From: Escherichia phage ECML-4
Reading direction: 5' to 3' (one strand)
Length of the DNA: 64,000 nt
Sequence record: JX128257
The position numbers and the translations under genes are program-made. Below are positions 8,703 to 62,025 of the stretch, one piece after another. The notes under the pieces are model-generated. The model was not told the origin of the DNA. It was given only the letters and a program-made list of their open reading frames with translations, and searched no databases. Positions within the stretch are counted from its first letter, which is position 1; each line of letters opens with the position of its first letter.

Positions 8703-10328
8703 TCATGCGTCTTTACCACCAAAGTTGCCGCCATTATCCTCCAGTTCCGGTTTTATATCAATTGGACCAGGACCAGAAGTAGATACTGGAGTTGCCCCAG
8801 CGCGTGATGCAGCACGACCAGCACCTTCAGCATATTTGATGTTGCCTTCAATAGTCTGAGCCACCGACAACTTATCACAAACTATTTCACTAGCCAGTAT
8901 TTTAGGCACTTTCAAAGTGTTGGAAACTTCCAACATCTCACAGATGATACGCATCACGTTTTGCGCCTGAATTTCGGCCAGCTGTGAAAATTTCATCAAC
9001 GCCGTGCCAGCAACCACATTGGAGTAGTTCGATGAATGTAGATGATAGACCTCACCTGTCTTGCGCTGAACTTCAGTCCCACCAATGGTCAGGTTGTGAT
9101 CACGACCAACATAGTAACGTTTGTCAAACATCGTCAGATCATAATGATCTTTGACTGATTTATTGACCACGTCCCCGTCAGGAAGCATCTGCTTATAAGA
9201 CCCCGAGGAGTGCATCCAATGGAGACGTTCCCCGCCTGGTGTGTCATCAACCTCCATGATATGCCCTGACCGAGATGCCATGACATTGTTGTAAGGATAA
9301 CGAGACCCGCCAGCAGAAGGAACCGACACCTCTCCTGTGTTATCAATATCTTGAACACGCCCAGAAGGGGGCGGAGTTTCCTGAACTTTTGGTGTACGAT
9401 CAGGGATTGGCTCAGACCATTTACCATTTTGTTGCGCAGGAGCCGCCGATGCTGTCGTAGCAGGACCAGGCCAACGATAACCCAACACAGATGAGCGGCT
9501 GAAGCGACTCACCTTCACAGAATCTGATTGGTTGCCTCCAATACACCAAACATAATTGGCATCGAATTTCTGCACGAACGCAACGTGTCCGAATGTTGGG
9601 TTGTTGCCACGCCGGAATACAACAACAGCGCCGTAGCGGGGTTCCGACAAAGGGGAACCCCATTGCAAATATGAACGAGCCAAAGCCGAGCGCGTTGAAG
9701 TGTATCCTGCTTGGATTAACACCCATCCCACAAATGAAGCGCACCAGCTGACTTCATCTTCCGAAGCGCCCAAAGATGTTGTCTTGTGATATTCCAAAAT
9801 CCTTGGGTTATTATTGAATTTGCCAGAATATTCTTTGACACCTAATTCACCACGAGCCACTGTCATCCATTTCTCAGGATCATAACCGTCCACAGGCGGT
9901 TGAGGTTCTGGTTGTGGGTCGTCTTCAATCTTGACAGGAACATTTTCAACGGCGTTATATTTCTGTCTTTCTATAGATTGAACAACCTGGCCCAGCGCCA
10001 ACGGGTTTGTGTCTGAACCATCCGTTGGTGTCGCCGCTGGCCAAACCCAGGCGATACGAATATTTTGGTATGCTTCATCCAAAGCAAATCCCATAACATC
10101 CGACCCGACTGTAATACCCGTTGGAGACCAGCCTAAACCTGCCGAGGAGGCGTTGGATGCTGGCATGAGCATTTTACCCCAAGGCAATAATTCGGTAGGT
10201 AAGAGAGTGGTATCTTCCGTGTGTACACCATAGATGCGCACAGCGACGCGCCCGTTCTGGTCGGGATCATTCACGTCTTCAACGCGCCCGTAAAACCAAC
10301 GCAAGTTGTCTAACATATTGAAACCCAT
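8703..10328 (-). CDS. gp5: baseplate hub / tail-associated cell-wall hydrolase, gp5-like with CHAP (NlpC/P60-type) domain
   Basis: N-terminal gp5-like OB region, central Cys-His hydrolase motifs (SWCASFVGWVL ... GHVAFV), position next to gp25. Confidence 0.75.
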   Translation of the reverse strand: MGFNMLDNLRWFYGRVEDVNDPDQNGRVAVRIYGVHTEDTTLLPTELLPWGKMLMPASNASSAGLGWSPTGITVGSDVMGFALDEAYQNIRIAWVWPAATPTDGSDTNPLALGQVVQSIERQKYNAVENVPVKIEDDPQPEPQPPVDGYDPEKWMTVARGELGVKEYSGKFNNNPRILEYHKTTSLGASEDEVSWCASFVGWVLIQAGYTSTRSALARSYLQWGSPLSEPRYGAVVVFRRGNNPTFGHVAFVQKFDANYVWCIGGNQSDSVKVSRFSRSSVLGYRWPGPATTASAAPAQQNGKWSEPIPDRTPKVQETPPPSGRVQDIDNTGEVSVPSAGGSRYPYNNVMASRSGHIMEVDDTPGGERLHWMHSSGSYKQMLPDGDVVNKSVKDHYDLTMFDKRYYVGRDHNLTIGGTEVQRKTGEVYHLHSSNYSNVVAGTALMKFSQLAEIQAQNVMRIICEMLEVSNTLKVPKILASEIVCDKLSVAQTIEGNIKYAEGAGRAASRAGATPVSTSGPGPIDIKPELEDNGGNFGGKDA

Positions 10329-10342
10329 TAGTCAATTAGAAT

Positions 10343-10352
10343 CATGGGTTAT
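10343..10352 (-). promoter_or_regulatory. near-consensus late promoter (CATAAATA) upstream of gp5-like gene
   Basis: Reverse complement of GTTATTTATG about 20 nt upstream of the ATG at 10328. Confidence 0.35.
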
Positions 10353-10649
10353 TTATGGCGGGGATTTGAAATCTGTCGAATAGTAATATTATAGGAAGCT
10401 CTGCTTCCGTTCAACTTTATTCTTTTCGTTTCTACTCGCTGAAGCTCGTAACACCGCCTTGACAGGCAGTCCCATTCCAATGCCATGGAGGCATAAAGGC
10501 GAGGAAAATACTGTACACCTCAGAACATGCGTAGAAAAGGATTATTTTTGCTTCAAAACAAATTCAAACCCCAATTTACACAACACTTACTTCAGCAACA
10601 ACGGTGTTATAGCAATTTAAGGTTAAACGTTCCTGTCTTAACCTATAAA

Positions 10650-10681
10650 ACAGGTAAGCAAAGAAAACCCCACATTACGTG
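10650..10681 (-). terminator. rho-independent terminator (minus strand)
   Basis: AACCCCAC-ATTAC-GTGGGGTT stem followed on the minus strand by TTTTCTTTGCTT. Confidence 0.7.
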
Positions 10682-10835
10682 GGGTTGGAAGATTTCTTGG
10701 ACAAACGTATCTTTAGTGTCTCTGTTAGCAAATCAAGATGCCAAGGCATCGACTCGCTTATTTCAAATATGCTATAGCCATGTGCCTTTAATTCGTCACA
10801 CATCACAAAGTAGGAGAGTAAATCAATTTCAAAAA

Positions 10836-11639
10836 TTAAATGAAAATTTCAGTGACACTGTTAAATTTGACTTCATGTTCTTTCCCACACGAAGGACATT
10901 TAATTTTCGTCGCGTAACGGATACGAGGAATCTTTTTAAAGAAATCGTCGGATATATCTTGAACAATCTCAGATTCAATATTTTCCCCCACCCATTTAAC
11001 AAATTCATCTTTGACGCGTTGACGTTCTTTAGCAACATCAGGTGCTATGCCAGGCTCTGCCGGATTCTCTACTTTCCAAACCTGACCATCATCGTCATAC
11101 AAACAATCAATAAATGTCGCGATCATTTGCTCCACAGATGATGCTTCGTTGAGCACTGAGGCGTCCGAGAAGGACGGTTGACGCATCTTGATGTGATAGC
11201 CACCAGGGAGGTCAAATGTTTCCCTGAAGCCTTCTGGGGACACGCATTTCACTTGGTTGAGGGGGATCGGTAAAACAAGTTCTTGACCACATTCTTTAAG
11301 GCCAGAAACTGGTTCTTCACCTTCATTTGTGTCGGATGGAACTTTGTTGTTACATTTGTATCGTATCTTCATGACCTCGCCGATAGATATACAGCGCATC
11401 TTTAAAAATACTTCTTCAGTAACACCGATTGGCAGTTTACTAAAGGGAACCCCAGCGTCAACACAACTATCAAACAGTTGCTCCAGCGTCGCCACACGTT
11501 CACTCATAGGAGTGTTCGGATCAGCAACCTGAAGTAACATGGTCTGTTGCCCTGCTGTAAAAGCGCGGTATTTAATCACCGTCGGCCAGAAATCACTTTT
11601 GTGTGTTCTCTCAGTTTTGGGCAATGATGGTAAATTCAT
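10836..11639 (-). CDS. late structural protein with C-terminal zinc ribbon (possible baseplate hub component)
   Basis: ATG at 11639 with GGAG SD and TATAAATA 29 nt upstream; C-terminal CPSCGKEH motif. The longer track ORF start overlaps the divergent gene. Confidence 0.55.
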   Translation of the reverse strand: MNLPSLPKTERTHKSDFWPTVIKYRAFTAGQQTMLLQVADPNTPMSERVATLEQLFDSCVDAGVPFSKLPIGVTEEVFLKMRCISIGEVMKIRYKCNNKVPSDTNEGEEPVSGLKECGQELVLPIPLNQVKCVSPEGFRETFDLPGGYHIKMRQPSFSDASVLNEASSVEQMIATFIDCLYDDDGQVWKVENPAEPGIAPDVAKERQRVKDEFVKWVGENIESEIVQDISDDFFKKIPRIRYATKIKCPSCGKEHEVKFNSVTEIFI

Positions 11640-11667: not shown

Positions 11668-11675
11668 TATTTATA
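11668..11675 (-). promoter_or_regulatory. T4-type late promoter motif TATAAATA (minus strand)
   Basis: Exact TATAAATA on the minus strand upstream of the start at 11639. Confidence 0.5.
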
Positions 11676-16469: not shown

Positions 16470-16477
16470 TATTTATA
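16470..16477 (-). promoter_or_regulatory. T4-type late promoter motif TATAAATA (minus strand)
   Basis: Exact TATAAATA on the minus strand in the divergent intergenic region. Confidence 0.5.
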
Positions 16478-58126: not shown

Positions 58127-58565
58127 CTGTTTCTCCTTTTGCTGCATATGCCAGTGCTTTTACAATCATCACGGCCAATCCGATTGGGTCGCACGTACCT
58201 TCGAATTCTTGTTCTAAAATCTCACGTATTTCATCAGAAGATTGTACTTCGGAGCAGTTCTTGCTCTGTCGACGTTGTTCTTGCTCAACGAGGTCTTTGA
58301 ACAGAAGGTCTTTGAAAGAATACTCATCGAAGTTTTCCAGATACTGCTGGATACTTGGTTGTTTCGCATCCATCGTTCTACGCAGATTGCTGATAGTTGT
58401 ACTCGCCTGTTCGCGGTGTTTGTTCATAACGGAAAAGTTCACGGGTTTTCCCCAAGCGTTCGTCACTGTGTTGGAACATACTTGTCCGAAGAGATCTTGG
58501 AAGGCGTCATCCAGATGAATCAGCGCGGCGGCCAGTTCATCATAAGTTGGTTTTTGAGCAGTCAT
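58119..58565 (-). CDS. hypothetical protein
   Basis: ORF. Confidence 0.45.
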   Translation of the reverse strand: MTAQKPTYDELAAALIHLDDAFQDLFGQVCSNTVTNAWGKPVNFSVMNKHREQASTTISNLRRTMDAKQPSIQQYLENFDEYSFKDLLFKDLVEQEQRRQSKNCSEVQSSDEIREILEQEFEGTCDPIGLAVMIVKALAYAAKGETDV

Positions 58566-62017: not shown

Positions 62018-62025
62018 TATTTATA
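62018..62025 (-). promoter_or_regulatory. T4-type late promoter motif TATAAATA (minus strand)
   Basis: Exact TATAAATA upstream of the small ORF starting at 61987. Confidence 0.45.

Follow-up and report, generated by a model that had tools for sequence, protein, structure and literature searches.

Two baseplate hub genes of Escherichia phage ECML-4, both read from the minus strand, are separated by an unusually long gap, which raises the question of what this intergenic DNA contains. The gap lies in a stretch of 64,000 nucleotides (nt) of sequence record JX128257 (hereafter the window, to whose first letter positions refer) and is bounded by the upstream limit of a gp5-like open reading frame (ORF) at 10328 and by the stop of a gp26-like gene at 10836. 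An initial annotation described it as a noncoding spacer of about 500 base pairs (bp). The gap is real; however, the 130 nt nearest to gp26 encode a conserved small protein (phrog_9633), and because this small gene occupies 10675-10806 and the gp5 start is corrected to 10316, the noncoding part amounts to about 345 nt. Much of that part is taken up by a structured RNA element with paralogues ahead of two other genes, gp6 and gp45. The element is an undescribed RNA motif, absent from Rfam 15, in which a compact pseudoknot or switch is combined with tandem G·A hairpins.

Over 751 bases around the spacer, the window shows 100% identity with Salmonella phages Marshall and Maynard and 99.9% with phage ViI, so that on nucleotide identity the source phage is a Kuttervirus (ViI-like; family Ackermannviridae); the plus strand of the window corresponds to the minus strand of the ViI record NC_015296. 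With the spacer as query, 276 phage records were matched. Outside Kuttervirus, identity over 10386-10667 is 72-76% in Limestonevirus, Agtrevirus, Taipeivirus, and a Yersinia phage, genera between which the gp26 protein itself is only 67-72% identical, and 50-nt windows across the spacer core (10450-10550) reach 72-88%, equal to or above most windows in the flanking genes. Conservation in related phages, one of the checks proposed for this locus, thus extends across genera and is on a par with that of the flanking genes. Two phage records, MN871475 (Pseudomonas phage Pa-sanjiao) and OR844942 (Enterococcus phage Efm 3-10), carry Kuttervirus DNA 94-98% identical to the spacer and its paralogues, and their host labels look doubtful.

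The conserved blocks of the spacer contain +1, +2, and -1 indels, and within 10329-10674 no ORF on either strand is kept in frame with a start codon across the relatives. A sense ORF of 45 amino acids is cut to 12 codons in Limestonevirus in the alignment, has no ATG in Taipeivirus, and has only weak counterparts among the ORFs of other genera; an antisense ORF of 53 amino acids is frame-shifted in Taipeivirus. The earlier statement that the spacer holds no convincing ORF is therefore borne out by indels and lost ATGs for the stretch of about 345 nt, but fails at 10675-10806, where phrog_9633 is encoded.

What is conserved instead is a set of helices. Read toward gp5, the element runs from an A/U box through a 5′ domain into two overlapping helices, X and Y, followed by hairpins P-b and P-c, a linker, and a terminal hairpin, P-d (Table 1). 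Its copies are named after their loci, type A at gp5, type B at gp6, and type C at gp45. Covariation was tested for X, Y, P-b, and P-c, comprising 19 pairs, on 15 distinct type A and type B cores. Paired cells make up 96.8% of these helices, six pairs carry double compensatory changes, and the covariation score is reached by none of 500 shuffles; in slid controls, with partners moved by one to three columns, at most one compensatory pair appears. The long hairpin of types B and C, which contains two invariant tandem G·A motifs, is 100% paired and adds four compensatory pairs, bringing the total to ten doubly compensated pairs in five helices. Given nine full-length type A sequences, RNAalifold recovered X, P-b, P-c, and P-d on its own.

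The changes within individual helices are consistent with this picture. Hairpin X becomes CAGCC/GGCUG in type B, stem Y becomes CCCU/AGGG in Taipeivirus, and P-d in Taipeivirus is GGATGC/GCATCC, an A-U to U-A compensatory pair. In P-c, the pair that flanks the tandem G·A changes from C-G to U-A, and the loop varies freely (UUCA, GAA, AAC, AUA, GUA), with an 18-nt hairpin inserted into it in type B, the gp6 paralogue. The overlapping X and Y would form either an H-type pseudoknot or two alternative folds; as a pseudoknot they would have stems of 5 and 4 bp, with 1 nt in the first loop and 4 nt in the last, and with no nucleotide separating the 5′ strand of Y from the 3′ strand of X. Within the 5′ domain, a GAGG/CCUC pairing is present in Kuttervirus and Limestonevirus and absent from Taipeivirus. 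Two long-range helices were rejected: UUUCUAC/GUAGAAA, which closes the Kuttervirus fold, is not conserved in the sequences inspected from other genera, and a 4-bp helix proposed by RNAalifold is broken in Kuttervirus.

The same alignments bear on the strand. A U·G pair in P-b is kept in 14 of the 15 sequences, and the minus strand is therefore taken to be the folded one. Altogether 22 G-U cells (18 in the core and 4 in the long hairpin) would be mismatches on the opposite strand, as would the tandem G·A motifs. Judged from these pairs, the folded strand is the gene-sense (minus) strand; P-d alone cannot be assigned, because it contains no G-U pairs.

A 49-nt piece of the core (window 10444-10492) recurs in ViI at 133,810-133,858, upstream of gp6, with 47 of 49 positions identical, and it lies at almost the same distance from its gene: 117 nt from the gp6 start, compared with 116 nt from the gp5 ORF start (10328). 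In the 157-kb ViI genome, the A/U-box pattern [TC]AAAAA[TC]N2-4[CT]TTT[CT][CT] has exactly three occurrences, one at each locus. All three copies are oriented toward the downstream gene, and types B and C stand at points of transcription divergence, where they head the gp6 block and the gp45-44-62-regA block, respectively. Between genera, type B is conserved at 75-83% and type C at 74-81%. Gaps elsewhere had been put at 10-100 bp, which is roughly right: in the ViI annotation, the three loci constitute the three largest gaps other than those with transfer RNA (tRNA) genes (507, 363, and 335 nt), the next largest being 58,157-58,369 (window about 285-495; 211 nt) and 83,212-83,480 (267 nt).

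A covariance model of the element found one copy in the window (10431-10496; 80 bits, E = 2e-21), with no second copy in the 64 kb, and in ViI it found two full copies, the gp45 locus giving a weak and partial match of about 16 bits. Only the three loci are counted, because generic tandem-G·A hairpins are not enriched in the ViI genome (62, against about 55 in shuffles). Among more distant phages, Erwinia phage phiEa2809 retains the long hairpin of type C, in which there are many paired changes, and Serratia phage KNP4 has G·A hairpins before gp5 with a different core. Vibrio phage K361 retains only GGGGUGAGCGAAGCGAACCCC, in the 5′ untranslated region (UTR) of gp5 (about 2880-2900 of the examined stretch), and the 13-mer UGAGCGAAGCGAA is common to the Limestonevirus P-c hairpin and this 5′ UTR. 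The element has no match in 5,426 E. coli genomes, and host mimicry was rejected. In metagenomes the element is rare: a pattern scan gave 44 matches, of which only two were true copies, and a protein-anchored search of IMG/VR revealed no new lineages carrying the core.

Nor did the element match any of the RNA classes tested. Scanning with Rfam covariance models, another of the checks initially suggested, matched no family at gathering score in the whole window; at E values up to 10, only chance-level matches were obtained in 10200-10950, and the element drew none in eight further loci, taken from other genera and from paralogues. ARAGORN found no tRNA or transfer-messenger RNA genes in the window. 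The hammerhead ribozyme has a conserved core, CUGANGA ... GAAA, around three stems, and a similar stretch occurs in P-c (UUGAUGAGC GAA GCGAAU in Limestonevirus, compared with GUUACGAGC UUCA GCGAGU in this window). This identity was rejected: the positions that would correspond to N7 and A14 vary together as a Watson-Crick pair, C-G becoming U-A, and no Rfam hammerhead model matches. A kink-turn was likewise rejected, as there is no three-nucleotide bulge 5′ of the tandem G·A and both sides form covarying standard pairs. In the literature searched, including the LIMEstone1 and CBA120 genome papers, no RNA or element is described at this spacer.

Table 1. Features of the gp26-gp5 interval in the window and the two paralogous loci in phage ViI (NC_015296).
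Feature	Position	Strand or direction	Description
gp26 late-promoter motif	11668-11675	-	TATAAATA; from a [CT]ATAAATA scan of the window
gp26-like baseplate hub gene	10836-11639	-	Pfam T4_baseplate, 1.5e-51
Conserved small gene	10675-10806	-	phrog_9633, E = 4e-29; 43 amino acids here, 49-51 in other genera
Intrinsic terminator	10658-10686	-	stem 10666-10686, 9 pairs, five of them G-C, then UUUUCUUU, the U-tract reaching down to about 10658
Second conserved hairpin	10637-10658	-	CUUACCUGUUUUAUAGGUUAAG; directly after the terminator U-tract; seen by eye in the alignment, no pair counts
TGnTATAAC	10606-10614	-	extended -10-like; conserved in the alignment
Structured RNA element	about 10385-10550	-	about 170 nt; about 100 nt past the terminator, ahead of the gp5 late promoter
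A/U box	10534-10550	-	CAAAAAUAAUCCUUUUC; common to the three paralogous loci
5′ domain	10495-10533	-	sequence highly conserved
Hairpin X	10480-10494	-	AUGCC UCCAU GGCAU; 100% paired; two compensatory pairs, types A versus B
Stem Y	10472-10475, 10485-10488; with X, 10472-10494	-	X-loop CCAU (10485-10488) with AUGG (10472-10475); 100% paired; one compensatory pair (Taipeivirus)
Hairpin P-b	10454-10469	-	CUGCCU GUCA AGGCGG; 100% of cells paired; two compensatory pairs
Hairpin P-c	10432-10451	-	UUAC-GA-GC UUCA GC-GA-GUAG; invariant tandem G·A/A·G motif
A-rich linker	10409-10431	-	variable sequence in the alignment
Hairpin P-d	10394-10408		GGAAGC AGA GCUUCC; abuts TATAAT
TATAAT	10388-10393	-	conserved (TATAGT in Limestonevirus and Agtrevirus); directly after P-d
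gp5 late-promoter motif	10350-10357	-	CATAAATA; T4-type; invariant in five genera
gp5-like baseplate hub and tail lysozyme gene	8703-10316	-	phrog_430; Pfam Gp5_OB, CHAP
Type B locus	ViI 133,694-134,056	toward gp6	363-nt gap
Type C locus	ViI 92,265-92,599	toward gp45	335-nt gap; A/U box and CGAG...CGAG hairpins common with the other types

The element is set between a terminator and a late promoter (Table 1). The terminator, a G+C-rich stem-loop with a U-tract, sits at the stop of the small ORF, is kept in all genera of the alignment with compensatory changes between them, is annotated as such in Maynard and LIMEstone1, and closes the transcription unit formed by gp26 and the small ORF. On the other side, CATAAATA resembles the octamer TATAAATA and lies a few tens of nucleotides before a late gene, as expected of a T4-type late promoter, and a late promoter is annotated at the same place in the LIMEstone1 record. 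The 64-kb window contains 4 sites of the consensus [CT]ATAAATA, compared with about 8 expected, and none of them is on the plus strand. Three, the gp26 and gp5 motifs among them, are followed by an ATG after 30-40 nt; the fourth precedes an apparent GTG start. The late-promoter reading of CATAAATA is sound because such sites are few, confined to the minus strand, and placed before start codons. The remaining two sites are at 16470-16477 and 62018-62025, minus strand. Homologues of gp55, gp33, and gp45 are present in ViI-like phages (PMC3184105; ViI annotation), and CATAAATA is a candidate site for the gp55/gp33/gp45 machinery.

Two further promoter-like motifs are conserved. TATAAT may be a -10 element or a piece of the RNA, and a promoter scan found no canonical -35 element at 16-18 nt from it; TGnTATAAC may be the promoter of the structured element, but motifs of its class show no enrichment across the genome. 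In LIMEstone1 (NC_019925, 86,566-86,587), a ‘putative middle promoter’ is annotated on the antisense strand within the G·A hairpin of the gp45 paralogue; it is probably a pattern-match artefact, because ViI-like phages lack MotA. The motifs listed initially are all real, with positions 5-8 nt off: the strong minus-strand terminator had been placed at 10650-10681 and proves, in addition, to covary, the GGAAGC-TCT-GCTTCC palindrome, now P-d, at about 10386-10400, and the late-promoter-like motif near 10343-10350. The TATAAT-like element was correctly recognized and belongs to the minus strand.

The gp5 start shared across genera is the ATG at 10316, and the longest gp5 ORF extends to an upstream ATG at 10328 that is specific to Kuttervirus. 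In the same genus, ACCCAU (10344-10349) is able to pair with AUGGGU (10323-10328) on the minus strand, just past the gp5 late promoter and covering the ribosome-binding region. The small gene is already annotated in EP75, SilasIsHot, and LIMEstone1, and it lies 3′ of gp26 in all Ackermannviridae examined, including the Vibrio members. Together with the 3′ end of gp26 (10675-10850, minus strand), it forms the most conserved stretch of the region, at 86-92% nucleotide identity between genera. In Kuttervirus, its frame is open for about 14 codons upstream of the GTG/ATG, with no canonical start there, and in Limestonevirus it is annotated as 49 amino acids overlapping the gp26 stop, features which may point to unusual initiation or coupling.

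What, then, could the element do? Control signals are wanting in these phages: the CBA120 genome paper reports that MotA, AsiA, Alt, and ModA are missing from ViI-like phages and declares unidentified both their pre-late promoters and those at points of divergent transcription (PMC3184105), and the LIMEstone1 and CBA120 genome papers list promoters in silico only. The reading that we tentatively favour is that pre-late transcription is gated by a new small RNA or cis-acting leader. Building on what is directly supported (conservation, strand, helices, paralogy, and the terminator and late-promoter motifs), we infer transcription of the element, its promoter, its 3′ end, a factor, and an effect on gp5. 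It would be made as the leader of a pre-late transcript running toward gp5; its G·A hairpins and pseudoknot would engage a factor of phage or host origin, or the RNA polymerase directly; this would settle whether transcription ends at the terminal hairpin, with a small RNA as the product, or continues; and late gp5 expression would bypass the element by way of the late promoter downstream. The initial suggestion of a small RNA or a regulatory region for the hub gene finds support in the strand-specific covarying structure, the adjoining terminator and late promoter, and the cross-genus conservation, but a role restricted to the hub gene does not stand; any role must be wider than gp5, because paralogous elements precede gp6 and gp45.

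Several observations weigh against a gating leader. Sigma-70 scans of the spacer in three genera turned up no canonical promoter on its sense strand, and the motifs GTTTA-N11-TAnnnT and TTG-N1-3-TATAAY show no genome-wide enrichment. The tail of P-d, UAUAAUAUU, is a poor U-tract, so that the hairpin does not qualify as an intrinsic terminator on the sense strand; in a scan of other genera, it scores better as an antisense terminator, with no minus-strand call here. Single-sequence folding energy is unremarkable (z = -1.33 sense; -0.54 antisense), and, with few lineages and a possible exchange of sequence between paralogues, the cell counts overstate the number of compensatory events. No transcript data for the element were found in the literature searched. 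Finally, gp5 and gp6 are late genes, for which a pre-late leader is of no obvious use.

The alternatives rank, by the weight that we give them, from trans-acting small RNAs through DNA-level signals and a stack of DNA signals for gp5 to a micro-protein. The first would make the copies stand-alone genes for small RNAs (a protein sponge or decoy by way of the G·A hairpins, or an anti-defence RNA), with their own promoters near the A/U box, their own terminal hairpins, and a position that is incidental; we regard this as possible, with the balance tilted against it. Box, structured body, linker, and terminal hairpin do recur in every copy; U-rich tails come after the terminal hairpin in types B and C (UUUUGAUU and AUUUAUUUAU), and the terminal hairpins differ in sequence between paralogues, as those of generic terminators would. 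Element A is transcriptionally insulated between the terminator and the late promoter. However, an incidental position sits poorly with three copies that all share the orientation of the downstream gene, and the sole surviving G·A hairpin of K361 lies inside the gp5 5′ UTR, which points to a role in cis; the scans yielded no recognizable promoter, P-d lacks a U-tract, and no complementary target turned up in the ViI genome.

That the elements act as DNA, either as origins or R-loop primer sites like T4 oriF/oriG or as single-stranded hairpins such as those used by the phage N4 polymerase, is unlikely. The spread of the copies at about 48, 92, and 134 kb of ViI, two of them at transcription divergence points, would suit origins, as would the AT-rich, purine-rich stretch behind each structured part, and tandem G·A and GCGAAGC-type hairpins are very stable in DNA too. 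Yet a duplex or cruciform is disfavoured by G-U pairs and tandem G·A motifs that suit one strand only, and the G·A hairpins have freely varying loops, in contrast to hairpin promoters, whose loops are fixed. To our knowledge, the known T4 origins have no conserved multi-helix folds with compensatory changes. A T4-type origin, in which a DNA unwinding element comes after a MotA-dependent middle promoter, was rejected as a candidate in any case, such a promoter being excluded in ViI-like phages, which lack MotA and AsiA (PMC3184105).

Quite unlikely is a mere stack of promoters, terminators, and protein-binding DNA sites serving gp5 and antisense traffic, with the helices as by-products. The terminator, TATAAT, the late promoter, and TGnTATAAC are indeed all conserved, and P-d scores as an antisense terminator, but such a stack leaves three things unexplained: the ten doubly compensated pairs in five helices, the 18-nt hairpin inserted exactly into a loop, and the recurrence of the 49-nt core before gp6. 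A micro-protein of 18-21 amino acids, MPPWHWNG..C.., read from the invariant type A AUG, is very improbable, for although no type A copy departs from the others in the ATG or the first 11 codons, and every genus keeps 18-21 codons open in this frame, a Shine-Dalgarno sequence is missing, the AUG is buried in hairpin X, the C-terminal half shifts frame between genera through +1 and -1 indels with its nucleotides conserved, and type B has no ATG and yet keeps the hairpin through two compensatory changes.

The interest of the element family extends beyond this spacer. ViI-like phages of the Ackermannviridae find wide use against Salmonella, E. coli O157, Klebsiella, and Dickeya, and a family of three elements, two at divergence points and one before a hub gene, offers a concrete handle on their pre-late scheduling. 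The helices are defined exactly enough for break-and-restore mutation to be feasible. Should the RNA be only a stable by-product, the gain would be a modest one, namely corrections to the annotation of the spacer, of the small gene, and of where gp5 starts.

Several known systems resemble the element in part. The PeSL cassettes of T4-type phages (early promoter plus stem-loop) are likewise repeated intergenic regulatory modules; they are, however, short, numerous, and mobile, each with a sigma-70 promoter and one stem-loop, in contrast to three long, multi-helix, syntenic elements in which no sigma-70 promoter is recognizable. Attenuators and riboswitch-like leaders have the same order of structured domain, linker, hairpin, and gene, here found at three genes, but the element matches no Rfam family, no alternative pairing of sensor with hairpin was seen to be conserved, and P-d has no U-tract. 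The leader of T4 gene 32, with its H-type pseudoknot and A/U-rich tract, offers a compact pseudoknot and a later A-rich unstructured tract for comparison. It differs in that the element does not precede an ssb gene, has two more hairpins between the pseudoknot and the A-rich tract, shows no sequence similarity, and is separated from the downstream start codon by a late promoter.

Further parallels are the antitermination signals put and nut, and a bolder proposal, which we consider unlikely, is that the pre-late control signals missing from ViI-like phages are to be found in these three elements, as cis-acting RNAs resembling put or nut sites in action. The polymerase would be modified by the RNA alone or with a factor on the tandem G·A hairpins, read-through of the hairpin or terminator behind would thereby be governed, and read-through would set the early-to-late timing of the gp45 and gp6 blocks and of gp5. 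Signals of this kind lie between a promoter and the terminators that are then read through; hairpins stand behind all three elements here, and the scans identified no promoter upstream of them. The nut sites of lambda (boxA plus boxB) are also short, repeated leader RNA signals with a hairpin as a protein platform, but the element has no GNRA-like boxB loop, and we know of no N-like protein in ViI-like phages. The single-stranded linker of the type A copy in Limestonevirus contains CGCUCUUA, which we take to be the lambda boxA octamer; this reading was rejected because the site is too variable, being CGCCUUUA in this window and CGCCUUA or UGCCUUA in Taipeivirus. The put sites of phage HK022 (putL and putR), cis-acting RNAs of processive antitermination, consist of two stem-loops with neither a pseudoknot nor tandem G·A; no likeness to them in sequence or fold was established, and element A comes after a terminator rather than after a promoter. 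What put and the present elements have in common is their arrangement: several near-identical structured RNA elements per genome, built of stem-loops, each pointing into a gene block with a hairpin or terminator behind it, and with no need to assume a dedicated protein.

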